Shown here one piece after another: positions 29,943 to 48,723 of a DNA stretch of 64,000 nt. A program made the translations under genes and the position numbers. This DNA comes from Candidatus Nomurabacteria bacterium (GTDB lineage: Bacteria > Patescibacteriota > Minisyncoccia > Phycocordibacterales > UBA9973). Position 1 is the stretch's first letter; each line of letters begins with the position of its first letter. The stretch spans positions 27,377-91,376 of the forward strand of contig JANPIZ010000008.1 of assembly GCA_031425235.1 (NCBI GenBank), in the 5' to 3' direction. The notes under the pieces are model-generated. The model was given only the letters and a program-made list of their open reading frames with translations. It ran no database searches and had not been told where the DNA came from.

Positions 29943-30536
29943 ATGATGGACGAAGAAACCAACAAAGAACTAGATATTGAAACATCCGAATCTGATGAGG
30001 AAATAGTTGAATTTGAATTCAATGATGACGGAGAGGAGGATTTAAAAAAGACGTTAAAGAAATTGCGGCTTGATTTAAAAGTCGCCCGGGCTGAAAAAGA
30101 AGAATATTTAAATGGCTGGCAGAAAGAGCGAGCAGATTTTGCTAATTATAAAAAAAGTGAAGATGATCGCAACGCGGTGTATAAGGAAAATCTACGTGAA
30201 CATATTTTGAATCGCTTTTTGACTGTGGCTGACAGCTTCAACATGGCTTTTGCAAATCGTGAGGCTTGGGAAAAAGTAGATGAAAATTGGCGTCGAGGTG
30301 TTGAGTACATTTATTCCCAGATGAGTAGCGTGTTTGAAGAATATGGGGTCAAAGAAATAGGTGTAGAAGGTGAAGTGTTTGATCCAAATCTTCATGAATC
30401 TATAGATACCATCGAAGCGAGCGATAAAACACAAGATCACACAATAGCAAAAGTAATCCAAAAAGGGTACAAAATGGGGAATCGAGTTATTCGTCCTGCG
30501 CGAGTAAATGTCTATGGATACAAAGAGAGCAACTAG
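29943..30536 (+). CDS. grpE: Nucleotide exchange factor GrpE
   Basis: 197 aa GrpE-like coiled coil plus beta domain. Confidence 0.85.
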   Translation: MMDEETNKELDIETSESDEEIVEFEFNDDGEEDLKKTLKKLRLDLKVARAEKEEYLNGWQKERADFANYKKSEDDRNAVYKENLREHILNRFLTVADSFNMAFANREAWEKVDENWRRGVEYIYSQMSSVFEEYGVKEIGVEGEVFDPNLHESIDTIEASDKTQDHTIAKVIQKGYKMGNRVIRPARVNVYGYKESN

Positions 30537-32217
30537 AAATTGTAAAAATTGCAAAGCGGATTTCGTCATACTAAGCGAGGATTTTTCATTTTATGAAAAA
30601 ATAAAAGTACCACCACCGACGTGGTGTTTTGTGTGTCGCCAACAACGCCGCTACGCGTGGCGTAACGAGCGTATATTATATCGTCGTAATTGCGATCTTT
30701 GTCAAAAAAGCACGGTGACTATCTATAGTCCTAACAAGCCGTACAAAGTGTATTGTAATGAATGTTGGTGGAGCGATAGCTGGGATACGACACAATATGG
30801 ACGGGATTTTGATTTCTCAAGACCATTTTTTGAACAATTTGCTGAACTTCAGCGTGACGCGCCGCGCATGGCTCTTTTAAATAAAAATAGTGTAAATTCT
30901 GAATACACCAATCATTCTGCTAATAATAAAAATGCGTATCTTTCTTTTTGTGCCTTTGATAGTGAAAACATAATGTACAGTAACTGGGTCATGAAAAATT
31001 CTCGTGACTGCATGGATTGCAGTTTTATTTACGAAAAAGGTGAACGATTGTTTGAGTGCACTGACTCACGATCAAGTTATCAGTCGCAATATAGCACCTT
31101 CCTAAAGGACTGCTCAAATTGTTTGTATTGTTACGATTGCCATGGATCTAGTGATTGTTTTATGTCCACTAATGTAAGAAATAAAAGCTATGTATTTAGA
31201 AATCAGCAACTCACTCGAGAAGAATATCTTGAGAAAATGAAATCTATAGATTTGTCTTCATATCAAGTGAGAGAAAAATTAAATGAAGAATTTCAAGAAT
31301 TAAAAATAAAAGATGCGATCCATCGCTATGTTATAAGTGAGAGAAATGTAAATTCTGTAGGTTCACTGATGTATGATTGTAAAAATGTTGCCACAGCTTT
31401 TGAAGTCAATAAAAGCGAAGATGCTAAATATATTTACGGAGGACTCGAACTCAAAGGTTGTATGGATATTTACCATGCTGGCTACAATACTGAGCTTTGT
31501 TATGAGCTGCACGGCTGTACTCGGACTTCCAATTGCCAGTTTTGTCATCTTTGTTACGACAATCTGAATATTATGTACTGCGACACATGTCAAAACAGTC
31601 AAAACCTTTTTGGTTGCGTCAGTGTTAAAAAAGGAGAGTATATGATTTTAAATAAAAAATATAACAAAGAAGACTATATAGTTCTCAAAGAAAAAATTAT
31701 TGAACACATGAAAAGTACAAATGAATATGGAGAATTTTTTCCACCCGAAATAGCACCTGTATACTATAACGAAACTCAGGGAAATGTATACATGCCTCTT
31801 AGCAAAGAGGAGGTATTAGGGAAAGGCTGGCACTGGGAAGAAACAACGACAGGGACTTTCGGCAAAGAAACAATCCACAGTAATGATATTCCCGATAAAA
31901 TACAAGATATTCTCGACACTTATTTAAAAGAAATTTTCTCTTGTACGGGATGTTCTAAAAATTATAATATTACTCAAAATGAACTTTTGTTTTACCGAAA
32001 AGAAAATATTCCTTTACCGCGTAAATGCCCGAATTGTCGATACAAAAGGAGGTTTGACCTAAGGCCGTCGAGGGAGCTATGGCATCGGGTATGTATGTGT
32101 GACCAAACCCATACAAACCATGGAGGAAAATGTGGGATAGAATTTAAAACTTCGTACGCCCCAGAAAGACTAGAAAAAGTCTACTGTGAAAAATGTTATC
32201 AGCAAGAGGTCTACTAA
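30508..32217 (+). CDS. Cysteine-rich zinc-ribbon-rich protein, paralog 1 of 5 (569 aa); overlaps the grpE stop
   Basis: N-terminal C-x2-C...FYEKIKVPPPTWCFVCRQQRR ribbon, a second CxxC...CxxC ribbon, central CxxCxxCxxC repeats, a C-terminal ribbon, and the invariant tail KVYCEKCYQQEVY. Confidence 0.7.
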   Translation: MSMDTKRATRNCKNCKADFVILSEDFSFYEKIKVPPPTWCFVCRQQRRYAWRNERILYRRNCDLCQKSTVTIYSPNKPYKVYCNECWWSDSWDTTQYGRDFDFSRPFFEQFAELQRDAPRMALLNKNSVNSEYTNHSANNKNAYLSFCAFDSENIMYSNWVMKNSRDCMDCSFIYEKGERLFECTDSRSSYQSQYSTFLKDCSNCLYCYDCHGSSDCFMSTNVRNKSYVFRNQQLTREEYLEKMKSIDLSSYQVREKLNEEFQELKIKDAIHRYVISERNVNSVGSLMYDCKNVATAFEVNKSEDAKYIYGGLELKGCMDIYHAGYNTELCYELHGCTRTSNCQFCHLCYDNLNIMYCDTCQNSQNLFGCVSVKKGEYMILNKKYNKEDYIVLKEKIIEHMKSTNEYGEFFPPEIAPVYYNETQGNVYMPLSKEEVLGKGWHWEETTTGTFGKETIHSNDIPDKIQDILDTYLKEIFSCTGCSKNYNITQNELLFYRKENIPLPRKCPNCRYKRRFDLRPSRELWHRVCMCDQTHTNHGGKCGIEFKTSYAPERLEKVYCEKCYQQEVY

Positions 32218-32277
32218 ATATAATTATTACCTACTTTATCAAACTAAATTACTTTACTTAAGTAAAGTAAACTAAAA

Positions 32278-34020
32278 ATGGAAAGGAAAAGTGAAAATAA
32301 AATATGTCAGAATTGTAAACAAGATTTCACAATAGATCCAGAAGATTTTAATTTTTACGAAAAAATAAAAGTTCCACCACCGACCTTTTGCGCAGAGTGT
32401 CGTATGGTACGAAGACTCATGTGGAGAAATGAGCGGTCTTTAACTAAGCGGGAGTGTGGGCTATGCCATAAATCGCTCATTTCAATGTATTCTGATGCTG
32501 CACCTGTCTATTGCACAGAATGTTTCCATGGGGGAGACTGGGATCAATTCATAAATGCAAAAGAGTATGATTTTACAAAATCTTTTTTCGAGCAATTGAA
32601 AGAATTATTAAAAATAAATCCACGTTTTTATTCCTACAAATTTGGTAATTTTATAAACTCTGAATTCGTAAATTACGCAAAGGACAATAAAAATGTGTAT
32701 CTATCTTTCTCGACCATTTATTGTGAAGATATTTCCTATTCAAACGTTATAGACAAATCTAAAAAGAGTATGGACTGCTTGAATGTAGATAAAATAGATG
32801 GGTGCTATGAAAATATTTATTGTGAAGGGAATTATAATACAACATATGCGGTAAAGTCTCAAAACTGCATAGACTCTAATTTTATTTATGATTGCTCAAA
32901 TTGCTCAGATTGTTTTATGTCAATGAACCAGAGAAATCAAAAGTATGTTTTCCAGAATCAAAAATTAACAAAAGAAGAATATTTTCAAAAAATTAAAGAA
33001 TATAAGTTGAATACATATTCTGGAATAAAAAAAGCTAAAGAAGAATTTGATAACAGTATAAAAAATAAAGCCTTTCATAAATATGCACTTATCTATGCTT
33101 CTGAAAATGCAACAGGAGACAATGTGCATAATGCTCGTAATCTAAAACAAGTCTTTGATACGTATGAATCTGAAAATATTTCGTATGCAAACAGAGTGCT
33201 ATGGACAAAAGACACTATGGATGTTTCTGGGTGTGGCTACGGTGAGCTTATTTATGAATCTATGGCGGCAACTCAAAATACATTTAAAGATTTCTTTTGT
33301 TATATGACAATTGAAGGATGTCGTGAGTGTGAGTATTCTATTGCCTTAACAAATTGCTCAAATTGTTTCGGTTGTGTTGGGCTCAAGAATACACAGTATT
33401 GTATTTTTAATAAACAATATGAAAAAGAACAATATTTTGAAATGGTTGAGAAAATAAAAAAGCATATGAATGATATGCCGTATGTGGATGAAAAGGGTAG
33501 AGTTTTCGCTTACGGGGAATTTTTTCCATATGATTTATGTCCTTTTGGTTATAATGAAGGAAATGCCCACGACTTTTTTCCAATTTCAAAAGAAGATGCA
33601 TTAGAGCGGGGATATAATTGGAAAGAAAAAGAGAAAAAAGATTATAAAGTAACCATACAAAGCTCAGATTTATTGGATAATATAACTGATGTGTCAGACG
33701 ATATTTTAAAGGAAATAATTTCTTGTCCTAATAATGGCGACCAAATGACGCAGTGTACGAGTGCTTTTAAAATCGTCCCCGCCGAACTGCAATTTTATAA
33801 ACAGAAGAATTTGCCAATACCTCGATACTGTCCTAACTGTAGACATTATGAAAGGCTAAAATATAGAAATCCGATTAAACTTTGGAAAAGGGGATGTATG
33901 TGTGACAAATCCCATGCTCATCACGTTGGGCAATGTAGCATAGAGTTCGAAACCACATATGCTCCCGAGCGAACCGAGAAAGTGTATTGTGAAAAATGTT
34001 ATCAGCAGGAGGTATACTAG
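32278..34020 (+). CDS. Cysteine-rich zinc-ribbon-rich protein, paralog 2 (580 aa)
   Basis: Same architecture; C-terminus ...KVYCEKCYQQEVY. Confidence 0.7.
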   Translation: MERKSENKICQNCKQDFTIDPEDFNFYEKIKVPPPTFCAECRMVRRLMWRNERSLTKRECGLCHKSLISMYSDAAPVYCTECFHGGDWDQFINAKEYDFTKSFFEQLKELLKINPRFYSYKFGNFINSEFVNYAKDNKNVYLSFSTIYCEDISYSNVIDKSKKSMDCLNVDKIDGCYENIYCEGNYNTTYAVKSQNCIDSNFIYDCSNCSDCFMSMNQRNQKYVFQNQKLTKEEYFQKIKEYKLNTYSGIKKAKEEFDNSIKNKAFHKYALIYASENATGDNVHNARNLKQVFDTYESENISYANRVLWTKDTMDVSGCGYGELIYESMAATQNTFKDFFCYMTIEGCRECEYSIALTNCSNCFGCVGLKNTQYCIFNKQYEKEQYFEMVEKIKKHMNDMPYVDEKGRVFAYGEFFPYDLCPFGYNEGNAHDFFPISKEDALERGYNWKEKEKKDYKVTIQSSDLLDNITDVSDDILKEIISCPNNGDQMTQCTSAFKIVPAELQFYKQKNLPIPRYCPNCRHYERLKYRNPIKLWKRGCMCDKSHAHHVGQCSIEFETTYAPERTEKVYCEKCYQQEVY

Positions 34021-34835
34021 CTATCAATATTCATTTTTTCGAATAATTTATCAGATTTTTCCTTTGTTATTTTTATTTTCTTTGAAAGTTTCCAAACAAC
34101 ATCAAATTGTGAAGATATCATATCAGCGAACTCTTTGCTTTCAATTATAAATCCAAAATTATCTTTTTGCGAGGAAACAAAAGAAACTTTATTCTCATAA
34201 ATCCAATAACCCATCGAGAAGTTTATATCTTTTGGGGCAATACGTATTTCTCGGATGAATTTCTCACCTGTGCCCATAAAAGGGTAGTCATCCATACTTA
34301 CTACTTGATTTTCTGGCCATATAGCTTCTATGTAGATGCCTCGCCTGACTCTCTCTTTATTAAATTCCTCAAAAAAGTCTTCACCAAGGGATCTCAACAT
34401 ATCTTTTATAGGCCAATAGGACTTACCTTTAATGTTTCTATACAAAAGGAGATCTCTCGGAATATTTTTCATTTCTTCCTTGCCTTCAAATATTTGAAAT
34501 CTAGGCATTACAGATGGCTTCACCCCTTTTCTTATTTCTAAAAAAACATTTTCTATAGCCTGTTTAGTATTTGTTATTTCTTTAATTTTTTCATCCATCA
34601 AGAGGTTAATTTTATCTTGTGATGTCACAGAAAACACCTTCACCCCATCTTTTCTAGATTCTATAACCAATCCCTTTTCCTGGAGATTTTTTAAAAAGCC
34701 GTACAAAGACGGACGGGAGAGTCCAGTTTTCTTTGCAATGTTGCCGGCCGTTTGTCCTGCATTTTCAATTAGAAAAAGGAAGACCTTGGTCTCATCTTCT
34801 TTCAGACCTAAAAATGCAAGTTTTTTATCTATCAT
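34017..34835 (-). CDS. TrmB-family transcriptional regulator (winged HTH plus TrmB C-terminal domain)
   Basis: N-terminal wHTH (GNIAKKTGLSRPSLYGFLKNLQEKGLV); 272 aa. Confidence 0.6.
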   Translation of the reverse strand: MIDKKLAFLGLKEDETKVFLFLIENAGQTAGNIAKKTGLSRPSLYGFLKNLQEKGLVIESRKDGVKVFSVTSQDKINLLMDEKIKEITNTKQAIENVFLEIRKGVKPSVMPRFQIFEGKEEMKNIPRDLLLYRNIKGKSYWPIKDMLRSLGEDFFEEFNKERVRRGIYIEAIWPENQVVSMDDYPFMGTGEKFIREIRIAPKDINFSMGYWIYENKVSFVSSQKDNFGFIIESKEFADMISSQFDVVWKLSKKIKITKEKSDKLFEKMNIDS

Positions 34836-34937
34836 ACATTAAACTGTATACTATTTTCATTTGTTGTCAAGATTGTGCAACAGTAGTGACACTATTAGGC
34901 ATTTGTGTAATAATTACCTTGTGCGATAATTAATAAA

Positions 34938-36599
34938 ATGAATTCAAAAAACAAAAACTGTGAGAATTGTAAAAATGACTTCCAAATAGAAGTGGAGGAT
35001 TTTTCCTTTTACGAAAAGATGGGAATTCAGGTTCCCAAAATCTGCCCACAATGCAGGCTGCAAAACAGAATGCTTTTTAGAAATTTTAAAACATTATACA
35101 AAAGACCTTCTAGCAAGTCGGGCGATATGATAGTTTCAGTTTACAGCCCTGAAGTAAAATTCCCAGTGTATAGCGTTTTGGAATGGTGGAGTGATGATTG
35201 GGATCCAATGAGCTATGGTATGGATTTTGATAGTGAAAAGCCCTTCTTCTCCCAGCTCTTGGAATTATCAAATAAAGTGCCTCGATGGTCAATGATGAAT
35301 TCTCAATGTGAGAATTGTGAATACTCAAATCAAATAAATAAAAGTAAGAACTGTTATATGATATCAGGTGGGTTAGATGACGAGGACTGCGATTATGGCC
35401 ATATTGTCTGGAATTCAAAAGACTCAATTGATAACTTATACTTGTTTAAATCTGAATCATGCTATGAATGCATTGACTGTGTTGCATCAAACAAGCTTTC
35501 TTACTCCCAAGAGTGTGAAAGTTGCTTAGACAGTATTGGGCTTTTTGATTGTCGGAATTGTTTAAACTGTATTGGATGTGTGGGACTTGTTGGCAAATCA
35601 TACTGTATTTTTAATAAGCAAGTAACAAAAGAAGAGTACAAAGAATTTTTATTAAAATACCCCTTAAATCAAAAAAGCTCCATTGAATATATTTTGAGAG
35701 AAAGAGATACTTTACGAGAAAGTTTGCCCCAGAGATCATTCTTTGGCTCTAGGAACAATGGAGTTTCTGGCAACCATATTTACAATGCCCACAATGTTCA
35801 CTATTCTTTTGATGTTAAAAGTGGTGAGAATTCAAAATTTTGTTTTACTGTAAGAAAAGCCATTGATTCATATGATGCTTCGTTTACTGGTGAATTATCT
35901 GAGTGTTATCAAGTCCTCACTATGCTTAACTCAAATAAAGTCATCGGCTCTGAAACTATATTAGACTCACATGATATATACTATTCAAACAACTGCTATA
36001 ACTCTGACAATCTTTTTGGTTGTTATGGTTTACGTAAAAAATCATATTGTATTTTGAACAAACAATATTCAAAAGAGGAATATATGATTATAAAAGATAA
36101 GATAATTGAGCAATTAAAAAGCACAGGGGACTTCGGAGCATTTTTCCCAAGACAACTCAGCCCTTTTGGCTATAATGAGGCCATTGTAAACGAATATATG
36201 CCAATGACAAAAGATGCAGCCCTAAGTAATGGGTTCACATGGAAAGACAATATACCTGGAACTAAGGGGCAAGGGACAATTGAAAATTCAAAATTACCTA
36301 CCAACCCAGAAGAGTATAGCGATAGACTAATACAAGAAATACTAACTTGTGAAAATTGTGATAAAAATTACAAACTTATAAACAGAGAGATAAATTTTTA
36401 TAAAAAAAATAAACTGTCTATTCCGAATAAATGTTTCAATTGCCGACACGCTGCCCGAATGAAAAAAAGAAACCCAAGAGTACTCTTTGCGGGAACTTGC
36501 GCCAAATGTAATAAAAAAATTCAAACATCATATACGACTGAAGACCAACTTAAATATAAAGTCTATTGCGAAAAGTGTTATCAGCAAGAAGTCTATTAA
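34938..36599 (+). CDS. Cysteine-rich zinc-ribbon-rich protein, paralog 3 (553 aa); second N-terminal ribbon degenerate
   Basis: Same family; ends ...KVYCEKCYQQEVY. Confidence 0.7.
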   Translation: MNSKNKNCENCKNDFQIEVEDFSFYEKMGIQVPKICPQCRLQNRMLFRNFKTLYKRPSSKSGDMIVSVYSPEVKFPVYSVLEWWSDDWDPMSYGMDFDSEKPFFSQLLELSNKVPRWSMMNSQCENCEYSNQINKSKNCYMISGGLDDEDCDYGHIVWNSKDSIDNLYLFKSESCYECIDCVASNKLSYSQECESCLDSIGLFDCRNCLNCIGCVGLVGKSYCIFNKQVTKEEYKEFLLKYPLNQKSSIEYILRERDTLRESLPQRSFFGSRNNGVSGNHIYNAHNVHYSFDVKSGENSKFCFTVRKAIDSYDASFTGELSECYQVLTMLNSNKVIGSETILDSHDIYYSNNCYNSDNLFGCYGLRKKSYCILNKQYSKEEYMIIKDKIIEQLKSTGDFGAFFPRQLSPFGYNEAIVNEYMPMTKDAALSNGFTWKDNIPGTKGQGTIENSKLPTNPEEYSDRLIQEILTCENCDKNYKLINREINFYKKNKLSIPNKCFNCRHAARMKKRNPRVLFAGTCAKCNKKIQTSYTTEDQLKYKVYCEKCYQQEVY

Positions 36600-36624
36600 A
36601 TGTCGTACTTTTCTTTATTCAACT

Positions 36625-36647
36625 ATCAGCGTACTAGTACGATAGTA
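36625..36647. promoter_or_regulatory. TrpR-operator-like palindrome (core CGTACTAGTACG within ctATCAGCGTACTAGTACGATAGta)
   Basis: Perfect 12-bp palindrome containing the ACTAGT half-site. Same extended motif occurs at 58128-58151 and 58536-58558. Confidence 0.45.
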
Positions 36648-36705
36648 TAAGGTTACAAATAAGTTAGTTATTTACCGAAAGATTCAAATAGGACTTTTTT
36701 GGTTT

Positions 36706-36745
36706 CCCCGCCTGCATCAGCTATGCTGAAAGCATTGCGGGCAGG
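36706..36745 (+). repeat. 40-nt GC-rich repeat element, copy 1 (intergenic, between convergent genes)
   Basis: ccccgcctgcatcagctatgctgaaagcattgcgggcagg; matches 50203-50242 (reverse complement) and 55086-55125 at ~90-93% identity. Confidence 0.7.
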
Positions 36746-36750
36746 TTCGT

Positions 36751-37269
36751 CTACTTACTAAAACTTTCCATAAATACTTTTCTTGAGACATCGTCTATAT
36801 TATCTGTAACCAGTATCATAATTTCTGTTGTTAGACCTAAATCTTTTTTTATGTTCATGAAAAGGTGTTCGTATGGATATGGTGAAATCCATGCCGAATT
36901 TTTAAGGCAGACAAACTGCGCTTTTTTGAGTAGGTACCTCAAGCTCTCGCGCTCACTTTTTCGTGATTCGGGAAGATCGAGCAAAATAATTCTCCAATAC
37001 CCATCCCAGTTTGTGCTCGCGAGCGTAGTTTCGTTTTCTAGTGTTAAGCTATGAACCTTTTTCTTGCCTTCTTTGGTGAGGCGGGCGTAGCTTTGATGTG
37101 CAGAGTCGTGAAGCTCCACCAGCCCTCCGCTTACGAGGTTTTTGAGGCTTCTAGATAGGGCGTAGGTGCCTTTTGAATCTTCATTTTCCTTTAGAATTTC
37201 AGTCGGTAATACTGATTTTTGCCCTAGAATCTTCAATATTTTCTTGGAATATTCTTGTTTATTTGACAT
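36751..37269 (-). CDS. Winged-helix transcriptional regulator (PaaX-like architecture)
   Basis: N-terminal wHTH; C-terminal WDGYWRIILLDLPE motif resembling the PaaX C-terminal domain. Confidence 0.4.
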   Translation of the reverse strand: MSNKQEYSKKILKILGQKSVLPTEILKENEDSKGTYALSRSLKNLVSGGLVELHDSAHQSYARLTKEGKKKVHSLTLENETTLASTNWDGYWRIILLDLPESRKSERESLRYLLKKAQFVCLKNSAWISPYPYEHLFMNIKKDLGLTTEIMILVTDNIDDVSRKVFMESFSK

Positions 37270-37301
37270 ACGTATATATTATAATATATAATCTCATTTA
37301 A

Positions 37302-37329
37302 CAAGTATTTCGTGATCGCTAAATACTTG
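37302..37329. promoter_or_regulatory. 9-bp perfect inverted repeat CAAGTATTT-N10-AAATACTTG in the divergent promoter region between the regulator and the dnaK-upstream gene
   Basis: Read directly; flanked by repeated ACGTATATA(T/A)TATAA boxes. Confidence 0.4.
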
Positions 37330-37361
37330 CAAATATTTTCCACACGTATATAATATAAAAT

Positions 37362-37754
37362 ATGGACGAAGGAAAAGTACAACAAAAAACTATAGAGGAA
37401 TGGAAAGAACTCTATTTGCAAAGGTTTAAAGATTTTCATGATAATTTTTCAGATGAAATTCCCGAAGAGATATTACACGGTCCTAATTCAAAAAACTTTA
37501 GCTCTGAAAATTATAAATTCAAGGTACGCGGTAATTGGTTTGTTGCAGTTAGGAATAATTTTGAGAATGCAGCAAGAATGAAAATATTTCCAGAAGAATT
37601 TAACAAAGAGTGGAGATCTTTTTTTAAAGCTTACGGAGAAAAGATGTCTAAATCTGGAGTTTGGGAAAATGTCACTAGAACAACAAAAGAGGATATTGAT
37701 ACAGCAAACAATTTTTTATTAAAAGCACAAGAAATTATAAATTTAACAAAATAA
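37362..37754 (+). CDS. Hypothetical protein (130 aa), immediately upstream of dnaK (4-nt gap)
   Basis: ORF only. Confidence 0.4.
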
Positions 37755-37758
37755 ATAT

Positions 37759-39685: not shown

Positions 39686-39711
39686 AAAAAGCCCTCTAAA
39701 GAGGGCTTTTT
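39686..39711 (+). terminator. Rho-independent terminator after dnaK (AAAAAGCCCTC-taaa-GAGGGCTTTTT)
   Basis: Hairpin plus U-tract. Confidence 0.75.
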
Positions 39712-39976: not shown

Positions 39977-40192
39977 ATGGAAAATAATAACTCAGGAAGC
40001 AATACAAACACAATCCTTATTGTTGTTGTATTGATCATCCTTGTTGGTTTAGGAGTATGGTGGTTTACTATGAGGTCTGCACCAGCAAATGATACTTCAG
40101 GTATCGATGTTAATGTAGATTTGCCAGGTGGTGACACAGGCGCAGGTGGCACAGTGCCGACTGGTAGCGGAGGAGGATCAGCAGTGGAATAA
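39977..40192 (+). CDS. Small membrane protein (71 aa): one transmembrane helix plus Gly-rich tail
   Basis: ILIVVVLIILVGLGVWWF; followed by terminator 40214-40238. Confidence 0.45.
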   Translation: MENNNSGSNTNTILIVVVLIILVGLGVWWFTMRSAPANDTSGIDVNVDLPGGDTGAGGTVPTGSGGGSAVE

Positions 40193-40213
40193 AAATTTAA
40201 AATGATTTTTACT

Positions 40214-40238
40214 AAAAAGCCCTTGATAGGGCTTTTTA
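40214..40238 (+). terminator. Rho-independent terminator (AAAAAGCCC-ttgata-GGGCTTTTT)
   Basis: Hairpin plus U-tract. Confidence 0.65.
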
Positions 40239-40348
40239 GTTGGGTGCATATTTGGTACCCTGTAGTAGATTTTAGAAAGATGATTTTATTTAAAATCACG
40301 CTAAAAAGCATTTCCAAAATTCACTACAGGGTGGTATAGTTTATATAT

Positions 40349-42463
40349 ATGGAACTGCCAGAAATACCTAAAAATAGAGATATGACATATCTTGGTTTGA
40401 GTACCTACCGAGACAAAAATCAGCTTTTTGGTATCAAGCGTAAAGACAGGCGTCAGCATGTGTATCTTCTCGGAAAGTCAGGTACGGGTAAATCCGTGCT
40501 TATGTTCAACATGATCATCCAAAACATCCAAAATGGGGATGGCGTGTGTCTCGTTGATCCGCACGGTGAAAACGTCGAAGGAGTACTTTCCTCTATCCCT
40601 CCACATCGCGTCAAAGATGTTATATATTTTAACCCGGCTGACGCTGAACATCACATCGGTTTCAATGTTCTCGAACTTGTTGATCCTCAATATAAACATC
40701 TGGTAGCGTCCGGGCTCATGGGTATATTTACGAAAATTTGGGCCAATGCGTGGAGTGCTCGAATGGAATACATCTTGAACAATACGATACTCGCGCTTCT
40801 CGATACGCCTGGCTCTACGATGCTCGGTATTCCGCGTATGCTCGTGGACAAGGACTATCGTCAAAAAATTATTGCGAACCTGAAAGACCCGGTGATCAAG
40901 GCTTTTTGGATTCACGAGTACGAAGCATGGCAAGATAAATTTCGAAATGAGGCTATCGCTCCGATTCAAAATAAAGTCGGACAGTTTCTGTCGACAGCTA
41001 TCATCCGAAACGTTGTCGGTCAGTCGAAAAGTACGATCAACATTTTCGACATGATGAATGAAGGAAAAATTTTCCTCGTGAACGTATCCAAGGGCCGCAT
41101 CGGTGAAGACAACTCAGCACTTCTTGGAGGTATGATCATTACCAAAATCCAGCTTGCAGCCATGGAGCGCGTGCGTATCCCCGAGGAGAATCGAAAAGAT
41201 TTTTACTTGTATGTCGACGAATTCCAAAACTTCGTAACAGATGCGTTTGCCAGCATTTTGTCTGAAGCTCGAAAATACAGATTGAATCTCACTGTGGCTC
41301 ACCAATACACTGCACAGCTCGTGTCAGATAAAAGCACAGCAGTGCGTGACTCTATTTTCGGTAACGTGGGTACTATGATCATTTTCCGCGTCGGTTCTGA
41401 CGATGCTGAATTCTTGGAAAAAGAATTTGATCCCGAATTTACTCCGCAAGACATAGTTAATCTTCCGAACTATAAAATATATTTAAAGCTCATGATTGAC
41501 GGGATAACGTCGAGACCTTTTTCCGCAAAAACTTTACCGCCTATGGTGAAGTCTGGTGATCCAGAAATCGAGAAGGCCGTAATCGAGTCATCCCGTGCTT
41601 TGTATTGCAAAGCAAAGGCTGATATTGAAAGGGAAATAAATGACTGGAGTGGCATGTCGCTTGGCGACGACGGGAATAACGTCCCAGGAAACATGGAAAA
41701 ATTTCCTGCTGTGTGTTCATTTTGTAAAAAAGAAACAACAGTACCCTTTAAACCCGAAAAAGGTAGACCTGTGTATTGCAAGGACTGCATTGCAAAAATA
41801 AAGGCAGGAGAAATAAAACCAAACAAAGACTCAATCGAACAAGTGCGAAGAGATGAAGTAAAATTTTATAAACCCCTTGCTGACCTCGGGATAGAATTCA
41901 CCGCTAAAGATACTGAAGATACAAATGACCACGCTCCAAAAGTAGCGACAGGTTCTTTTGGTAAGTTGATACCACGAAATGAAGAATCGGACGGCAGAAT
42001 CAAGCAGCACAAACCTTTTATTAAAAGACCAAAGATAGATGGATTCAAACCAAAGCCTCCTCGGGTACCCGGCGAGAATCTAGCTTTACGACAAGCTCTC
42101 AATAAAATTGCTCCTCAAAAACCACAAGAAGAGCCAATGCCCCTTGAAGTTAAAAAAGAAATTCTGCAAAAAGTCGTCGAACCTATATCACTCGAAGCTC
42201 TTAAAAATAAAATGAAAGATATCAGGACTATTCCGAAGGACCGGTCAGCGAGTGCAACTGATATGAATAAATTAAAGGATTTGATCAGTGCTTCCGTTGC
42301 GAATTCGCCAAAAAAAGAGCTTTTAGAAACACCAGAAAATAAATCAGAAGAACGAGTCGATCAAGATGATGGAAACAAAAATACGAACTCAGCAACAAGC
42401 TCAGGATCTACACCACAGCCGAAAGAAGTACCAGAAGATGTGTTAAGAAAAATTTTGGAATAA
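40349..42463 (+). CDS. HerA/DUF87-TraD/VirD4-like P-loop ATPase, paralog 1 (704 aa); has a ~270-aa K/P/E-rich tail containing a CxxC-x19-CxxC zinc ribbon
   Basis: Walker A GKSGTGKS followed by VDPHGE (DUF87/HerA hallmark); Walker B-region YLYVDEFQNF; TraG-D_C-like region; C-terminal CSFCKKETTVPFKPEKGRPVYCKDC. Confidence 0.7.
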   Translation: MELPEIPKNRDMTYLGLSTYRDKNQLFGIKRKDRRQHVYLLGKSGTGKSVLMFNMIIQNIQNGDGVCLVDPHGENVEGVLSSIPPHRVKDVIYFNPADAEHHIGFNVLELVDPQYKHLVASGLMGIFTKIWANAWSARMEYILNNTILALLDTPGSTMLGIPRMLVDKDYRQKIIANLKDPVIKAFWIHEYEAWQDKFRNEAIAPIQNKVGQFLSTAIIRNVVGQSKSTINIFDMMNEGKIFLVNVSKGRIGEDNSALLGGMIITKIQLAAMERVRIPEENRKDFYLYVDEFQNFVTDAFASILSEARKYRLNLTVAHQYTAQLVSDKSTAVRDSIFGNVGTMIIFRVGSDDAEFLEKEFDPEFTPQDIVNLPNYKIYLKLMIDGITSRPFSAKTLPPMVKSGDPEIEKAVIESSRALYCKAKADIEREINDWSGMSLGDDGNNVPGNMEKFPAVCSFCKKETTVPFKPEKGRPVYCKDCIAKIKAGEIKPNKDSIEQVRRDEVKFYKPLADLGIEFTAKDTEDTNDHAPKVATGSFGKLIPRNEESDGRIKQHKPFIKRPKIDGFKPKPPRVPGENLALRQALNKIAPQKPQEEPMPLEVKKEILQKVVEPISLEALKNKMKDIRTIPKDRSASATDMNKLKDLISASVANSPKKELLETPENKSEERVDQDDGNKNTNSATSSGSTPQPKEVPEDVLRKILE

Positions 42464-42464
42464 C

Positions 42465-44228
42465 ATGCATAGTGAAAATAAAATCTGCCAAAATTGTAAA
42501 ACTGAATTTGTTGTAGAACAAGCAGACTTTGATTTTTATAAAAAAATGAAGGTACCAGCTCCGACATTTTGTCCGATGTGTCGTGCACAAAGGCGGTGGA
42601 ATTTCCGTAACGAACGAGGTTTTTATAAAAGAAAATGTGATTTTTCCGGAAATCAAATTTTTTCTATGTATGCATCAGATTCACCAATCAAAGTGTATGA
42701 ACGAGAGGTTTGGTTTTCTGATGTGTGGGATCCAATGGATTATGGACGGGATATTGATTGGTCACGATCATTTTTAGCTCAAATTTACGAACTGATGCTT
42801 GAAGTGCCTTTTAAGTCGAATAATGTCATTCGGGGGGTGAATAGTCCGTACGCCAACAATGCTACTGACCCTAAAAATTGTTACCTGGTTTTTAATTCTA
42901 CTAGTGCAGAGGATTGTATATATGCAAATGGTGTAAATCATTCGCGGGATTGTGTTGATATATCACATGTATCAAAATCAGAAACATGCTACGGGAGCTT
43001 TTGGCTGGATACGTGTTATAAAACGCATTTCTCTTCCGAGTGTGCTGATTCAAGCGATTTGTGGTTTTGCCGTGACTGTTATGGGTGCATGAGTTGTTTT
43101 GGATCAGTAAATCTTCGTAATAAAAGTTATTACTTTTTTAATAAAAAATATACTAAAGAAGAATATGAACAAAAAGTAAAAGAGTATAAACTTCATACAC
43201 GAGATGGATTTGAAAAAGCACGGGACGATGCTACGGGATTTTGGAAAAAGTTCCCAAATAAAAATCACCAAGGAGTAAAAAATATTGACTCGACTGGTTC
43301 ATATGTTACCAACTCTAAAAACGTAAAAGATTCTTTTTTAATACGTGAAAGTGAAAATCTACGTTATTGTCAATATCTACAAGAAAGTCCCGGTACAAAA
43401 GATTGTTATGATTATTCAAATTGGGGCGCAGGGGCTGAGCTCATCTATGAAGCTATCTCCTGTGGCTCAGGAGCACAAAATATAAAATTTGCGTGGCTTG
43501 GGCAGGAGTCTGTGCACGACCTTGAGTATACTATGGCATGCACCAGTAGTTCCAATAATTTATTTGGATGTGTAGGATTACGTAAAAAAGAATATTGCAT
43601 TCTGAATAAACAATATTCAAAGGAGGAATATATTAAACTCGTTGAAAAAATAAAGATCCATATGAATGATATGCCGTATATAGATAAAGGTGGTCGTATA
43701 TATAAGTACGGTGAATTTTTTCCAAATGAATTTAGTCCATGGGCTTATAATGAAACTCTTGCTCAGGAATATTTTCCTCTCACAAAAAATGAAGCTTTAG
43801 CTAAAGGTTATCGTTGGCGTGACCCGGATACAAAAGATTATAAGCCTACGTTGCACCTAGGTGAATTGCCAAACGATATTACTCAAATGGACGATTCAAT
43901 ACTTGAAGAAATTATTGAATGTGCGCATAAGGGTCAGTGTAACCAGGGATGTACCAAGGCATTTCGTATTATTCCAAATGAGCTCAACTTTTATCGAAAA
44001 ATTAGTGTATCTATACCCACGCTCTGTCCAGCATGCCGTACCCTAGAGCGGCTTAAAATGCGTTTAGGTGTTAAATTATACGAAGCAATATGTATGTGTA
44101 GCGGTGACAACGAAACTGAACATTTTCATGGCAAAGCTCATTGTGAAAATAAGTTTAAAACAGGATATGTTCCTAGTGAAGGTGATATTGTATATTGTGA
44201 ACAATGTTATCAGCAGGAAGTATACTAA
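42465..44228 (+). CDS. Cysteine-rich zinc-ribbon-rich protein, paralog 4 (587 aa); starts 2 nt after the ATPase stop
   Basis: Same family; C-terminus ...VYCEQCYQQEVY. Confidence 0.7.
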   Translation: MHSENKICQNCKTEFVVEQADFDFYKKMKVPAPTFCPMCRAQRRWNFRNERGFYKRKCDFSGNQIFSMYASDSPIKVYEREVWFSDVWDPMDYGRDIDWSRSFLAQIYELMLEVPFKSNNVIRGVNSPYANNATDPKNCYLVFNSTSAEDCIYANGVNHSRDCVDISHVSKSETCYGSFWLDTCYKTHFSSECADSSDLWFCRDCYGCMSCFGSVNLRNKSYYFFNKKYTKEEYEQKVKEYKLHTRDGFEKARDDATGFWKKFPNKNHQGVKNIDSTGSYVTNSKNVKDSFLIRESENLRYCQYLQESPGTKDCYDYSNWGAGAELIYEAISCGSGAQNIKFAWLGQESVHDLEYTMACTSSSNNLFGCVGLRKKEYCILNKQYSKEEYIKLVEKIKIHMNDMPYIDKGGRIYKYGEFFPNEFSPWAYNETLAQEYFPLTKNEALAKGYRWRDPDTKDYKPTLHLGELPNDITQMDDSILEEIIECAHKGQCNQGCTKAFRIIPNELNFYRKISVSIPTLCPACRTLERLKMRLGVKLYEAICMCSGDNETEHFHGKAHCENKFKTGYVPSEGDIVYCEQCYQQEVY

Positions 44229-44230
44229 TT

Positions 44231-46000
44231 ATGGAAACTAAAAAGTGCCAAAATTGTAAAACTGAATTTGTTATTAAGAAAGAAGATTTTAATTTTTACG
44301 AAAAGATAAAAGTGCCTGCTCCTACATTTTGTCCGGAGTGTCGACTTATTCGACGGATGATGTGGCGTAACGAGCGTTCATTGTTTAAGCGGACCTGCGC
44401 AAAAACTGGCAGAGATATCATTACGATGTTTCATCCGGATGCTCCTGTGGTGGTGTACGATCACGATGTGTGGTGGGGCGATACTTGGGAACCAACTGAT
44501 TATGGTGCTGTGTATGATTTTTCAACACCATTTTTTCAGCAATTTAAAGAATTACTTAAAAAAGTACCACTTGCTACCCTCGGGAATCAAAATTGCCCGG
44601 GGAGTCCTTACGGCAACCACAATGCGGACTGTAAGCTTTCCCACCTCCTATACGCTTCGTTTGACAATGAACGAGTGAGTTATTCTCACGGAGCTCTGGC
44701 TTCGAAAGATTGTTTTGATATGTATAAAACATTACATTCCGAGCTTTCATATGGCGATACGTTATGTGCGGGCCTATATAAAACACATTTATCTTATAAT
44801 TCTGACGAATCTCTTAACTCAATGTTTCTTAAGCATTGTATGAACTTGCAAGATTGTATTGGCTGCGTGAATTTACGAAATAAAAGTCATTGCATTTTTA
44901 ATGTGCAATATTCTAGAGAAGAATATGAACAAAAAAAACAAGAGTTTGATTTTGGAAGTTATAAAAATTTAGTTGATTTTGAAAACAAGTTCAATGAATT
45001 TACACTCACATTCCCGAATAGATATGCAAACAACATAAGATCAGCGGACGTTTCTGGTGACAATATCATGAATTCCAAAAATGCTAAACATTGTTTTGAT
45101 TTATACGGCGAGGTGCAAGATTCCAAATATCTAATTCATATTGTAAACATGAAAGATAGTTATGATGTGTATGGTGGTGGAGCTGGCGCCTCTCTTGTTT
45201 ACGAAGGAGTGGATGCCGGGTTACAAATATCAAATCAGCTTTTTTCTGTATTATCTCATGGGTGCCTCGATACAAATTATACGTACATGTGTTATGGCTC
45301 GAAAGATCTTTTCGGATGTATTGGGTTACGTAATAAGCAGTATTGTATTTTAAATAAACAATATACTAAAGAAGAATATTTTGAACTTGTTCCAAAAATT
45401 ATTGAGCACATGAACACTATGCCGTATATAGATGCAAAAGCTCTCGTGTATACATATGGTGAATTTTTTCTAAGTGAAATTTCTCCGTTTTCCTACAACG
45501 AAACAATCGCTCAAGAGTATTTTACAAAGACAAAAAAACAAATAGCTGAACAAGGTTTTAAATATAGAGAACCAATACATAAAGATTATGTTATAACTAT
45601 AAAAAATAAAGATTTGCCTGACCATATACAAGAGATCTCAGACTCTATTTTAGACGAAATTATAGAGTGCCCAAACAATGGACAAGAAACGACTCAGTGC
45701 ACTAAAGCTTTTAGAATTATAAAAAGTGAATTAGATTTTCTTAAAAATAATAATATTGCCTTACCTAGGTATTGCCCAAACTGCAGACACTATAACCGAC
45801 TAAGACAACGAAATCCATTTAAATTGTGGCATCGCATGTGTCAGTGTGGTGGGGTAAGTTCTCAAAATGGAAAATATAAAAATACAATAGTACATACACA
45901 TGGCGACACAGAATGTTTAGTTGAATTTGAAACTTCCTATGCACCAGATCGACCCCAGATAGTGTATTGCGAGAAATGTTATCAGCAAGAAGTATATTAA
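44231..46000 (+). CDS. Cysteine-rich zinc-ribbon-rich protein, paralog 5 (~589 aa). Start placed at METKKCQNCKTEF by homology with paralogs, not at the ORF-track ATG 44204.
   Basis: Same family; ends ...VYCEKCYQQEVY. Confidence 0.7.
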   Translation: METKKCQNCKTEFVIKKEDFNFYEKIKVPAPTFCPECRLIRRMMWRNERSLFKRTCAKTGRDIITMFHPDAPVVVYDHDVWWGDTWEPTDYGAVYDFSTPFFQQFKELLKKVPLATLGNQNCPGSPYGNHNADCKLSHLLYASFDNERVSYSHGALASKDCFDMYKTLHSELSYGDTLCAGLYKTHLSYNSDESLNSMFLKHCMNLQDCIGCVNLRNKSHCIFNVQYSREEYEQKKQEFDFGSYKNLVDFENKFNEFTLTFPNRYANNIRSADVSGDNIMNSKNAKHCFDLYGEVQDSKYLIHIVNMKDSYDVYGGGAGASLVYEGVDAGLQISNQLFSVLSHGCLDTNYTYMCYGSKDLFGCIGLRNKQYCILNKQYTKEEYFELVPKIIEHMNTMPYIDAKALVYTYGEFFLSEISPFSYNETIAQEYFTKTKKQIAEQGFKYREPIHKDYVITIKNKDLPDHIQEISDSILDEIIECPNNGQETTQCTKAFRIIKSELDFLKNNNIALPRYCPNCRHYNRLRQRNPFKLWHRMCQCGGVSSQNGKYKNTIVHTHGDTECLVEFETSYAPDRPQIVYCEKCYQQEVY

Positions 46001-46027
46001 ATTTTATGTTAAAATAGAACAAAATCA

Positions 46028-47485
46028 ATGCCAAAGCCAAATCGAGTACAAATAATCAAATACGCTCCACCACCACCTGAGCTGCCGGTGTTTGGCAAGG
46101 TGAACGCTGAAGATGTTTCATTTATAGGACATACCAATTACGTGGCCGCTCTTGAAGAGAAGAAATTTATTTTCGGAATCAAGCGTGTTGATCGAAGGCG
46201 ACATTTGTATATTATCGGAAAGTCTGGAGTGGGGAAAACAAAGCTTCTCGAGCTTTTTCTACGTCAGGACGTATCGTACAATCACGGTTTTTGTTTGATC
46301 GATCCCCACGGCGACGTGATCGATGCGATGCTCGACTATATACCTCGGGAGCGTATTGAGGATGTATGTCTCATCGACCCACCTGATATTGATTTCCCCG
46401 CATCTTTCAATCCGCTTGCTAATGTGGACCCACTTTTTAAATTCCAACTCACCCAAGGGCTCATCGAAGTATTTCAAAAACAATTCGGCGCAAACTGGAC
46501 ACCACGTCTTGAGCACGTGTTTCGTTTTACGTGTTTGGCGCTTCTCGACTATCCGCACGCAACTATGCGGGGGATGATTTCGATGCTCACTGACCGAAAT
46601 TATCGCCAGAAAGTAGTGGAGTATATCACCGATGATATGGTGAAAAGATTCTTCGCCATTGAATTCGCCGATTGGTCGGAGAAATTCGACACCGACGCTA
46701 TTATCCCGCTCGTGAACAAACTCGGACAGTTTCTCTCAGACCCGCTTCTTCGGAATATTTTCGGACAGAAGCAAAACAAAATAGATATTAGCAAACTCAT
46801 GAACGAAGGGAAAATAATACTTATCAATTTATCGAAGGGTCGCCTCGGTGAAGAAAACTCATCATTCCTTGGTTCTATGTTTTTAACAAAAATAAAACAG
46901 GCAGGGATGGAGCGAGCGAGTATGCCTGAGTCAGCGCGAACTGATTTTTATATTTATGTGGACGAGTTTCAAAATGTGGTTACTCAAACTTTTGAAAATA
47001 TTTTATCTGAGGCAAGAAAATATGGACTCAACCTCACCATGGCACATCAATATGTGGGGCAAATCATCCCGCAAGTTCATAAAGCTGTGCTCGGTAACTG
47101 CGGAAGTATTATTACGTTTCGTATTTCTGGTGAAGATGCAGTAAAAATGAAACCGGAATTTGCGCCACTCTTTGACGTGAAAGACATGATCAACCTTGCA
47201 GTGGGAGAATTTTATGTAAAGATGACGATCGATGGTGAATCATACGACCCTTTTTCAGCTGAAACATTGCGAGTACTTCCGCCCACACATCCATCGTATA
47301 GACAAGAAATCATAGATGCATCTCGTAGAAAATATTCAATATCAAAGGACGATGCAGCGAAACTTATCATTGAAGAGGAAGCAACTATTATTCGAAGTGC
47401 TGAAGAGAAAGCAATTATTGAAGGTAAAGGAAAGGGTCCAGAAACTACTTCGCAAGTTTCCCAAGAAGCTGAACCAATGATTTAG
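46028..47485 (+). CDS. HerA/DUF87-TraD/VirD4-like P-loop ATPase, paralog 2 (485 aa, no C-terminal tail)
   Basis: GKSGVGKT Walker A, IDPHGD, YIYVDEFQNV; collinear with 40349-42463. Confidence 0.7.
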   Translation: MPKPNRVQIIKYAPPPPELPVFGKVNAEDVSFIGHTNYVAALEEKKFIFGIKRVDRRRHLYIIGKSGVGKTKLLELFLRQDVSYNHGFCLIDPHGDVIDAMLDYIPRERIEDVCLIDPPDIDFPASFNPLANVDPLFKFQLTQGLIEVFQKQFGANWTPRLEHVFRFTCLALLDYPHATMRGMISMLTDRNYRQKVVEYITDDMVKRFFAIEFADWSEKFDTDAIIPLVNKLGQFLSDPLLRNIFGQKQNKIDISKLMNEGKIILINLSKGRLGEENSSFLGSMFLTKIKQAGMERASMPESARTDFYIYVDEFQNVVTQTFENILSEARKYGLNLTMAHQYVGQIIPQVHKAVLGNCGSIITFRISGEDAVKMKPEFAPLFDVKDMINLAVGEFYVKMTIDGESYDPFSAETLRVLPPTHPSYRQEIIDASRRKYSISKDDAAKLIIEEEATIIRSAEEKAIIEGKGKGPETTSQVSQEAEPMI

Positions 47486-47600
47486 TTTTTGGCCAAGAAA
47501 CAAAATCAATTCTATAAAGCAATCTATCTGGCTGTGCTCAGCCAGCGAACTGCTCGCTCAGCCCCGCTGCGCAAGGCTTTTTAGAAATTATTTATATTTC

Positions 47601-47629
47601 TTGACCGTGAGGGCTATATAAGTATAATA
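47601..47629 (+). promoter_or_regulatory. Sigma70-type promoter TTGACC-N17-TATAAT upstream of dnaJ
   Basis: Motif spacing read directly. Confidence 0.45.
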
Positions 47630-47634
47630 GACCC

Positions 47635-48723
47635 ATGGCAAAGGATTATTATGAAACATTAGGAATAAATAAGGGCGCTTCAAAGGAGGAAATTAAAAAA
47701 GCCTTCTATAAGCTCGCACATAAATACCACCCTGATAAAAAGGAGGGAAATGAAGCCAAATTCAAAGAGGTAAATGAAGCCTATCAAACTCTTTCTGATG
47801 ACACGAAACGCTCAAAATACGATCAATTTGGTGCTGGGTATGAGAATATGGGTGGAGGACATTCACATCAAGGTGGCGGATTTGAAGGCTTCGATTTCAG
47901 TGGTGCTGGAGGTTTTGGAAATGGCGGAGCTGAATTTGATTTTGGAAACTTGAATGATATTTTTAGTGATTTTTTTGGCGGCGGCGGGCGACCTCAGGCA
48001 CGACGCGGTCGCGACATATCGACCGAAATACAAATTTCTTTTTCCGAGTCAGTGTTTGGTGTAACTCGAAAGGTGCTCATTACCAAAACTTCCACGTGTC
48101 TTACGTGTAAAGGTTCTGGCGCAAAAGTTGGCACTAATATGGAAACGTGTAAATATTGCAACGGACAAGGTACTATTCGGGAAACTAAACGATCATTCCT
48201 CGGCAATATTTCTAGTACAAAAATATGTGATACATGTTTGGGTACGGGCGAAGTTCCAAAGGAAGTATGTGCTACCTGTAAAGGTAAAGGGGTATTTCGT
48301 CGTGAAGAGGAAGTTTCTATTGCCATACCTGCAGGCATACGTGATGGGGAAATGATTCGCATGACTGGTATGGGCGAAGCAATTTCTAAAGGTACCACCG
48401 GCGACTTGTATATAAAAATAAACGTTGCACCACATCCGATATTTAAACGTGAAGGTAGTGACGTGGTCATGACTCTCGACCTGAAGCTTTCTGACGCACT
48501 TCTAGGTACGAAATATCTAATTCAGACTCTTGATGGTGAAATAGAAGTCACGATACCAGAAGGAGTTTCTATAAATGAAATATTGCGAGTGCGCGGCAAG
48601 GGTGTGCCGAGTGCCAAGAATAAGCGAGGTGACTTACTAATCAAGCTCAACATAAAGCTTCCATCAAAAATTTCACGTAAATCTCGCGAACTCATCGAAG
48701 CTCTTAAAAAAGAGGGAATATAA
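47635..48723 (+). CDS. dnaJ: Molecular chaperone DnaJ (Hsp40)
   Basis: J domain with HPD (YHPDKK), G/F-rich region, four CxxCxGxG zinc-finger repeats, C-terminal domains. Confidence 0.95.

Follow-up and report, generated by a model that had tools for sequence, protein, structure and literature searches.

In Candidatus Nomurabacteria bacterium (assembly GCA_031425235.1), the Hsp70 genes grpE, dnaK, and dnaJ are interleaved with arrays of cysteine-rich paralogs and with FtsK/HerA/VirD4-type ATPases. The window analyzed here is a 64,000-nucleotide stretch of contig JANPIZ010000008.1 (positions 27,377 to 91,376), in which the list of open reading frames (ORFs) and their translations place the three Hsp70 genes over 18.8 kb (29943-48723). 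Between them lie five Cys-rich paralogs of ~570 amino acids (aa; Cys1 to Cys5), ATPases 1 and 2, and two minus-strand regulators (Table 1). Comparison across genomes of the candidate phyla radiation (CPR, or Patescibacteria) shows an ancient core of an ATPase and a Cys array, frequently joined by a TrmB-like regulator, with DUF8128 in either fused or free form; the Hsp70 interleaving is a Paceibacteria-specific elaboration. The Cys arrays and the ATPases are thus linked both physically and genomically.

Over their whole length, the five Cys-rich proteins can be aligned with 33-44% identity (tblastn E values of 1e-91 to 1e-149), and tblastn found no sixth copy in the window. An initial annotation, made from the sequence alone, had described them as paralogs with common motifs, and alignment bore out both the motifs and the tail VYCE(K/Q)CYQQEVY, which all five carry. 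More than 5,000 homologs were recovered in one search; they derive from Nomurabacteria, Paceibacterota, and other Patescibacteria, and none has a name or a precomputed Pfam domain. The best 120 of these homologs are 57-80% identical over their full length. A five-paralog profile run against 1.84 billion representatives matched 2,237 clusters with an E cut-off of 1e-30 and 3,765 with one of 1e-10, so that the family comprises ~2,200-3,800 clusters at 50% identity. Nearly all of the best 150 clusters are 520-612 aa long, and the profile matched most of them once over the full length, pointing to one fixed architecture. Among all relatives seen so far, the family is confined to the CPR.

This architecture consists of a zinc finger pair, solenoid-like units A and B, a small alpha/beta domain, and a second zinc finger pair. 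Profile-profile comparison detected two internal duplications, one relating the N-terminal finger pair (residues 9-83) to the C-terminal pair (482-575; probability 99.7%, E value of 1e-25) and one relating unit A (96-245) to unit B (246-400; probability 99.9%, E value of 6e-37). Across 201 full-length members, three of the putative four-Cys metal sites are conserved at 84-100% and the fourth at 61-82%, and a CxxCxxCxxC block that closes unit A is conserved at 70-97%. The solenoid-like units are rich in Cys, Asn, and Ser. Residues conserved throughout these 201 members fall mostly at structural or repeat positions, with no obvious catalytic motif among them. Of the five copies, Cys3 diverges most and has lost the cysteines of its second N-terminal finger.

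The terminal modules resemble small zinc finger domains that are otherwise known in isolation. Whole Cys-rich proteins score 15-24.5 bits against zf_Tbcl (PF13451) and zf_Tbcl_2 (PF23477), below the Pfam cut-offs. When finger modules were searched in isolation (n = 22), zf_Tbcl matched 14 (best E value of 1.1e-5) and zf_Tbcl_2 matched 9 (best E value of 1.6e-7). The second finger of each terminal module is of the zf_Tbcl_2/TIGR04272 type, and taken as a pair the fingers show a weak likeness to LIM domains (CRP1, E value of 0.0017). Small Methanosarcina proteins that contain a CxxC-x17-CxxC motif bind zinc, as shown by inductively coupled plasma mass spectrometry (PMC12704099). Whereas the zf_Tbcl-type entries are isolated small domains, the union of such fingers with a duplicated solenoid-like core is seen in nothing known. 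The initial annotation had been unable to place the family, and profile searches fared no better: apart from the subthreshold treble-clef matches in Pfam, no significant assignment was obtained from Pfam, NCBIfam, or the PDB, or from PADLOC for Cys1 to Cys3, the copies scanned. A full-text literature search likewise returned no description of the Cys-rich family or of a module interleaved with Hsp70 genes. Neither the architecture nor the system as a whole has a described counterpart in curated families, solved structures, or the literature searched.

ATPases 1 and 2 are 43% identical to each other, and both exceed the Pfam cut-offs for TrwB_AAD_bind (45.2 and 24.9 bits versus 20.5), TraG-D_C, and DUF87; ATPase 1 alone also exceeds that for T4SS-DNA_transf. 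Together with fold comparison, these matches place the ATPases in the HerA/VirB4/VirD4 group, as divergent members of the FtsK-HerA superfamily, and so agree with the initial annotation. An AlphaFold2 model shows a helical block at residues ~135-260 (predicted local distance difference test [pLDDT] scores of only 47-78), spanned by the Pfam TrwB_AAD_bind alignment, that may correspond to the all-alpha domain inserted in the nucleotide-binding domain of coupling proteins. The Walker A (GKSGTGKS and GKSGVGKT, at residue 42 of ATPase 1 and residue 64 of ATPase 2) and Walker B (VDEFQ) motifs are invariant among 40 aligned ATPase sequences, which is consistent with both proteins being active ATPases. 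Residues 450-483 of ATPase 1 form a CxxC-x17-CxxC zinc finger (zf_Tbcl_2, 50.5 bits, cut-off 27; TIGR04272, 51.5 bits, cut-off 36), the same type as in the array proteins, followed by a C-terminal low-complexity tail of ~220 aa that is presumably disordered. ATPase 2 has no zinc finger. The zinc finger-bearing ATPase 1 type stands beside Cys arrays in 17 loci. The best 120 homologs of ATPase 2 are 83-96% identical to it, and this protein matches DnaK in conservation.

According to a 2025 survey, 2,918 genomes of Patescibacteria contain 5,713 VirD4-like genes, of which just 148 lie near virB4, and the authors of the survey raised the possibility of exaptation (PMC12102498). The window ATPases appear to belong to this orphan VirD4-like class. 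The puzzle of about two orphan coupling proteins per patescibacterial genome would thereby gain candidate partners in the Cys arrays, the TrmB-like regulator, and DUF8128.

Conservation of the module was assessed in a family-anchored sample, obtained by a pattern scan with one genome per species that gave at least 549 relatives. The 79 loci kept were ranked by similarity to Cys1 and are therefore biased to grpE-adjacent orthologs. All 79 belong to the CPR, among them Nomura-, Harrison-, Lipton-, and Staskawiczbacteria, Minisyncoccia, and Peregrini-, Gracili-, and Abawacabacteria. Same-strand tandem arrays reach 11 copies (L014; tblastn and ORF clustering), and 233 Cys copies are present in 82 sources (81 loci and the window). 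ATPase-family ORFs, a cluster that takes in free-standing DUF8128 proteins joined via fused forms, occur in 29 of the 82; the corresponding counts are 21 for dnaK, 17 for the PaaX-like gene, 14 for grpE, and 9 for dnaJ. Where maps were examined, the PaaX-like gene is divergent and lies just 5' of dnaK. The order grpE-Cys(1-5)-PaaX(-)-dnaK-ATPase1-Cys(1-3)-ATPase2-dnaJ recurs in L004, L005, L007, L012, L022, L032, L041, L051, L055, and L072 and in two look-ups anchored on ATPase 2 (L082 and L083), the second of which is minimal, with one Cys gene per slot. Since the ATPase-Cys-Cys-ATPase block amid grpE, dnaK, and dnaJ recurs in many genomes, the adjacency is not peculiar to this one, and this ground for refuting the initial annotation falls away. 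Modules without Hsp70 genes were found in L013, L018, L026, L030, L039, L048, and L060.

A metagenome scan anchored on the ATPase, with a fused DUF8128-ATPase as the query, yielded 80 loci at 47-100% identity. Cys genes are present in 58 of these and lie within 600 bp in 48; where both flanks extend at least 2.5 kb, the fraction is 34 of 41. A TrmB-like gene on the opposite strand accompanies at least 20 of the 80, and one also sits inside the Cys array of L048. None of these Peregrinibacteria-type loci contains dnaK, dnaJ, or grpE. The presence of Cys genes without Hsp70 genes indicates that the interleaving is lineage specific; it recurs in the Paceibacteria only.

The fused ATPases also identify a further component. 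In Peribacter, Peregrinibacteria, and Abawacabacteria, the ATPases that neighbor Cys arrays are 747 aa long and have an N-terminal extension of ~300 aa that is homologous to window ORF 16355-17767, a DUF8128 protein (blastp E values of 6e-13 to 1e-15). A single protein family, phrog_5156, joins the two, its N-terminal part matching the DUF8128 ORF and its C-terminal half matching ATPases 1 and 2. Because DUF8128 is fused to the ATPases in other lineages, the free-standing protein is probably a trans-acting partner of the ATPases here. It has a conserved context of its own (BipA, a sigma-like gene, DUF8128, YceG, and MnmA) and is found near Cys/ATPase modules in L018, L060, and L065. Free-standing forms are membrane anchored according to transmembrane (TM) prediction, and the fusions suggest that DUF8128 may serve as a substitute membrane anchor.

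The initial annotation had considered a fast-evolving family, and the identities point the other way. In Hsp70-bearing loci, orthologs of the window proteins are 78-91% identical for DnaK, 85-90% for ATPase 2, 67-79% for DnaJ, 63-72% for GrpE, 62-82% for ATPase 1, and 56-74% for the Cys proteins (62-74% for Cys1). Best Cys matches in other genomes are 55-79% identical (56-80% for orthologs), whereas paralogs within arrays are ~40-47% identical everywhere, the closest pairs being 36-50% identical with the exception of L007 (63%). Recent amplification was rejected on this ground, as within-array identity lies below ortholog identity; with no recent duplicates and with conserved orthologs, the arrays are not hypervariable cassettes. 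These comparisons mark them as old, stable, and subfunctionalised paralog sets.

The locus sits in core chromosomal surroundings rather than in an island. The genes rpsD, rpoA, rplQ, rplM, and rpsI stand upstream of grpE, and dnaJ is followed by an arginase-family gene, cysS, an AI-2E transporter gene, and dnaB. A phage or mobile origin was rejected because the flanking genes are ribosomal, aminoacyl-tRNA synthetase, and replication genes and there are no phage relatives: tblastn found no matches in 50,697 phage records, and IMG/VR held none. G+C content is 0.33-0.365 over the Cys-rich genes (30001-37999 and 42001-45999) versus 0.415-0.42 over dnaK and the ATPases (38001-41999 and 46001-47999). 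Given the conserved synteny, expression or constraint is a likelier cause of this gap than a foreign origin.

All genes of the dispersed Hsp70 region were found where the initial annotation had put them, as were the overlap of Cys1 with the grpE stop and the two minus-strand regulators, for which Pfam agrees. The view of one Hsp70 operon split by insertion did not survive. Because a terminator-like hairpin follows dnaK and promoter-like sites precede dnaK and dnaJ, the grpE-dnaJ region is probably several transcription units in which dnaK, the ATPase block, and dnaJ are separated. The 673-bp gap between dnaK and ATPase 1 holds a hairpin, a 71-aa ORF with a single TM segment, and a second similar hairpin; the two hairpins are GC rich (ACTAAAAAGCCC...GGGCTTTTTAGTT) and bracket the ORF. 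The gene in this slot varies by genome and is a 67-aa Cys-rich ORF in L083. Two blocks are tightly packed, namely grpE/Cys1, with a 29-nt overlap, and ATPase1-Cys4-Cys5-ATPase2, with spacers of 1, 2, and 27 nt, the 2-nt spacer following from an N-terminal alignment that favors the ATG at 44231 as the Cys5 start. The grpE/Cys1 overlap suggests translational coupling. The gene after grpE overlaps it in the called genes of L083 as well (GrpE 980-1570, next gene 1542-3212), and tblastn boundaries indicate a grpE/Cys overlap in L003, L004, L012, L021, L032, and L041.

Between the PaaX-like gene and dnaK, two direct copies of ACGTATATAWTATAAWAT at 37270 and 37344 overlap consensus promoter-like sites. 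The pair is unique to this spot in the window (0.07 expected by chance) and makes ACGTATATAWTATAAWAT a candidate operator of dnaK; no copy was found 5' of the ATPase block or of other units. No controlling inverted repeat of chaperone expression (CIRCE) was found in the window within 3 mismatches, and the genes directly 5' of grpE are ribosomal and do not include hrcA. A single CIRCE-controlled heat shock operon was therefore rejected, dnaK and dnaJ having their own promoter-like sites and dnaK a following hairpin. Whereas the canonical hrcA-grpE-dnaK-dnaJ operon is contiguous and under HrcA/CIRCE control, the genes here are dispersed and CIRCE free, with a PaaX-like gene conserved 5' of dnaK, and the PaaX-like protein may be the Hsp70 regulator in this lineage. 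The 130-aa ORF directly 5' of dnaK has no Pfam match, and among the related loci compared a homolog occupies the equivalent position in L051 only.

We tentatively propose that ATPase hexamers recruit, unfold, or translocate the zinc finger array proteins with Hsp70 as a lineage-specific helper, a reading that we regard as quite possible though short of probable. The hexamers would bind array proteins via the terminal zinc finger modules or the invariant C-terminal tail ...VYCEKCYQQEVY. The bound proteins could then be recruited, unfolded, or translocated in the manner of substrates of a type IV coupling protein or of EccC, the ATPase of type VII secretion systems (T7SS), and the DUF8128 protein could supply a membrane anchor. 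In the Paceibacteria, where the module is interleaved with grpE, dnaK, and dnaJ and grpE overlaps Cys1, Hsp70 would be co-produced and might plausibly keep the multi-zinc repeat proteins competent for folding or transfer. The linkage, the tight spacing, the type of the ATPases, the finger common to ATPase 1 and the arrays, and the DUF8128 fusion all support this proposal. Whether the array proteins would be cargo or adaptors, where they would go, and what Hsp70 would contribute are the parts of it that we infer.

Several observations weigh against it. Neither ATPase has a TM or hydrophobic segment, so that the membrane domain of canonical coupling proteins is absent, and the fused DUF8128-ATPases have no TM segment either. 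The AlphaFold2 model of the ATPase is by fold as close to HerA as to TrwB at a moderate confidence (pLDDT score of 64.8). No type IV secretion system (T4SS) gene or relaxase was recognized among the scanned window ORFs, and none is named among the recurrent neighbor clusters of the 81 loci. The Cys-rich proteins have no TM segment and no signal-like N terminus; they look cytoplasmic and show no sign of export. Their core housekeeping setting and old, conserved paralogs are unlike typical effector repertoires, and the fused-ATPase loci do without Hsp70 genes altogether. In the cultured Saccharibacterium Southlakia epibionticum, the t4cp homologue is reported to be non-essential for epibiotic growth (PMC12102498).

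The closest known systems each differ from the present one. In Bartonella, virD4 stands with tandem bep effector paralogs, a coupling protein beside its substrate genes. Likeness to VirD4, TrwB, and TraD lies in the Pfam matches and in the paralogs with conserved terminal modules beside an ATPase. However, beyond the missing membrane domain and the lack of recognized T4SS or relaxase genes among the scanned window ORFs and named neighbor clusters, there are two paralogous ATPases per module here, one with a zinc finger, and the putative substrates are conserved and housekeeping-like rather than variable effectors. The T7SS ATPases EccC and EssC recognize a C-terminal signal on paralogous substrates encoded nearby, and the array proteins carry an invariant C-terminal tail. 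EccC, though, has three tandem ATPase domains and membrane helices, its substrates are small helical WXG/LXG proteins, and no other T7SS component is seen here. The HerA-NurA, HerA-Sir2/Nezha, HerA-DUF, DndH/DptH, and TdpA systems share the DUF87 match and the principle of an ATPase platform for dedicated partners encoded alongside. In contrast to these, the present modules have no NurA, Sir2, or nuclease partner but multicopy zinc finger/solenoid-like proteins, and their genes belong to a highly conserved core, not to an accessory set.

A bolder version of our proposal, which we consider unlikely, makes the array proteins the cargo of an unrecognized patescibacterial transfer route that runs through the orphan VirD4-like ATPases and DUF8128. 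The array proteins would be fed into either the T4SS of Patescibacteria or some new channel, bound for the cell surface or the host cell; the zinc fingers would refold after delivery, and Hsp70 would act in the Paceibacteria as a holding or unfolding chaperone. If true, the epibiotic lifestyle of the CPR would have its first candidate family of substrates, the thousands of genomes that keep coupling-protein homologues far from T4SS genes would be accounted for, and the system would become a strongly derived variant of coupling-protein/substrate systems.

A different and likewise doubtful reading is a cytoplasmic nucleic acid machine, in which HerA/FtsK-like hexamers move DNA or RNA and the zinc finger proteins serve as sequence- or structure-specific adaptors; such a machine could process imported DNA or maintain the chromosome in these nucleotide-scavenging organisms. 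The public names of the ATPases ("T4SS DNA-binding domain-containing"), the four treble-clef/zinc-ribbon fingers per array protein, and the mildly basic terminal modules (isoelectric points [pI] of 7.5 and 8.7) agree with it, and the DnaK-like conservation of ATPase 2 and the housekeeping context fit a core function. However, the array proteins as a whole are hydrophilic and near neutral (pI of 6.0-7.3) with acidic solenoid units (pI of ~5.6), and the finger pair is no less like protein-interacting LIM fingers than like fingers that bind nucleic acid. No helicase, NurA-type, or other nuclease partner was detected in the modules, and the retention of 2 to more than 11 ancient paralogs is left unexplained.

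The conserved interleaving with grpE, dnaK, and dnaJ in the Paceibacteria, the grpE/Cys1 overlap included, would fit a proteostasis or metal-handling module, in which the Cys proteins are Hsp70 co-factors or holdases, obligate clients, or metal/Fe-S scaffolds and the ATPases are unfoldases or loaders; zinc-dependent Hsp33 and the zinc finger domain of DnaJ offer a comparison. The CxxCxxCxxC block conserved throughout the family and the recurrent ArsR-like and CutA1 neighbors also speak for such a module, which we nevertheless consider rather improbable. Hsp70 genes are missing from all 80 fused-ATPase loci and also from the Paceibacteria loci L013, L039, and L060, the promoter-like sites of dnaK and dnaJ and the terminator-like hairpin after dnaK set these genes apart, and the putative dnaK operator does not recur 5' of the ATPase block. 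A ClpB-type protein encoded in the window (9334-12048, plus strand; Clp_N, two AAA modules, and ClpB_D2-small) is already a canonical disaggregase candidate alongside DnaK, and outside secretion systems FtsK-HerA ATPases are not known to act on proteins as unfoldases. As to the neighbors themselves, ArsR/SmtB-like winged helix-turn-helix genes (~90 aa) lie inside Cys arrays in L007, L012, L015, L016, and L066, and CutA1 genes lie beside Cys arrays in L001, L002, L019, L039, L041, and L062; they may reflect a metal or redox connection, or chance. A link to disulfide-forming enzymes was considered and rejected: the first two look-ups had VKOR/DsbB genes close to Cys genes, but homologs turned up again in L001, L002, and L019 alone.

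An anti-phage or intermicrobial conflict system, with a HerA-type platform and diversified sensor or effector paralogs, is very improbable: multiparalog arrays are common in conflict systems and the ATPases match PADLOC models, but only generic ATPase ones (mad8, E values of 3.7e-16 and 1.2e-11, and more weakly HerA and DndH), while the PADLOC scan of Cys1 to Cys3 was blank, relatives are missing from phage records and IMG/VR, Pfam recognized no nuclease, Sir2, TIR, or other effector domain, and the fixed syntenic place by ribosomal genes, the 83-96% conserved ATPase, and the lack of recent duplications are the opposite of a variable defense island.

The CPR account for much of bacterial diversity, and the majority of the genes conserved in them have no assigned function. 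Arrays of 2 to more than 11 ancient ~570-aa copies occupy ~10-20 kb of genomes that are usually under ~1 Mb. If the array proteins are cargo, they could supply the effectors or surface proteins that have been missing from the picture of episymbiotic bacteria; otherwise, the system would still count as a new core machine in a major radiation of bacteria, built on a protein architecture without a match in solved structures.

Table 1. Coordinates of the genes and sequence elements discussed, in window positions
Feature	Position	Strand	Basis or remark
Sigma-70-r4/HARE-HTH gene	15278-16309		5' of DUF8128 gene
DUF8128 (PF26449) protein, 470 aa, two N-terminal TM helices	16355-17767	+	Homology to ATPase extension
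grpE (197 aa)	29943-30536	+	ORF; orthologs at same place in other loci are PF01025 GrpE
Cys1 (569 aa)	30508-32217	+	ORF; start overlaps grpE stop by 29 nt
Cys2 (580 aa)	32278-34020	+	ORF; modelled member
TrmB-like winged-helix regulator (272 aa)	34017-34835	-	Pfam TrmB, E value of 2.1e-12; divergent from Cys3
Cys3 (553 aa)	34938-36599	+	ORF
PaaX-like regulator (172 aa)	36751-37269	-	Pfam PaaX_M, E value of 2.3e-19; divergent from dnaK
dnaK promoter-like region	37263-37361	+	Consensus TTGACA-18-TATAAT at 37263-37292
130-aa ORF	37362-37754	+	ORF; directly 5' of dnaK
dnaK (638 aa)	37759-39675	+	ORF; orthologs carry PF00012 HSP70
Terminator-like hairpin, 14-bp stem	39683-39714		Hairpin scan; after dnaK
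71-aa single-TM ORF	39977-40192		ORF and TM scan; between dnaK and ATPase 1
Second hairpin, near-identical to first	40211-40242		After 71-aa ORF
ATPase 1 (704 aa)	40349-42463	+	Pfam, TIGR04272
Cys4 (587 aa)	42465-44228	+	ORF; 1 nt after ATPase 1
Cys5 (589 aa from internal ATG)	44231-46000	+	ORF; longest ORF from 44204
ATPase 2 (485 aa)	46028-47485	+	ORF, Pfam; 27 nt after Cys5
dnaJ promoter-like site TTGACC-16-TATAAT	47601-47628	+	Near-consensus sigma-70-like match only
dnaJ (362 aa)	47635-48723	+	HPD motif and four CxxCxGxG repeats, read from translation; orthologs in other loci carry PF00226, PF00684, PF01556

Other genes of the window drew attention in passing. A gene pair at 23210-24400 and 24403-25698 (plus strand), between alaS and infA/rpsM/rpsK, is conserved in 12 loci and has no Pfam match at E<=1e-5; the first product looks actin/FtsA/PilM-like at its N terminus, and the second has one TM segment. 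Two neighboring plus-strand ORFs of ~330 aa (6450-7463 and 7647-8639) are Glu/Lys rich and coiled-coil-like in appearance, have no Pfam match, and share a similar N-terminal motif (...ENLGGSKEEL... and ...EHLGGQDGV...). A class-V aminotransferase that is cysteine desulfurase-like is encoded at 3509-4657 (plus strand). The tRNA genes form a cluster of four at 407-1056 (minus strand), with one more at 12866-12948 (minus strand).

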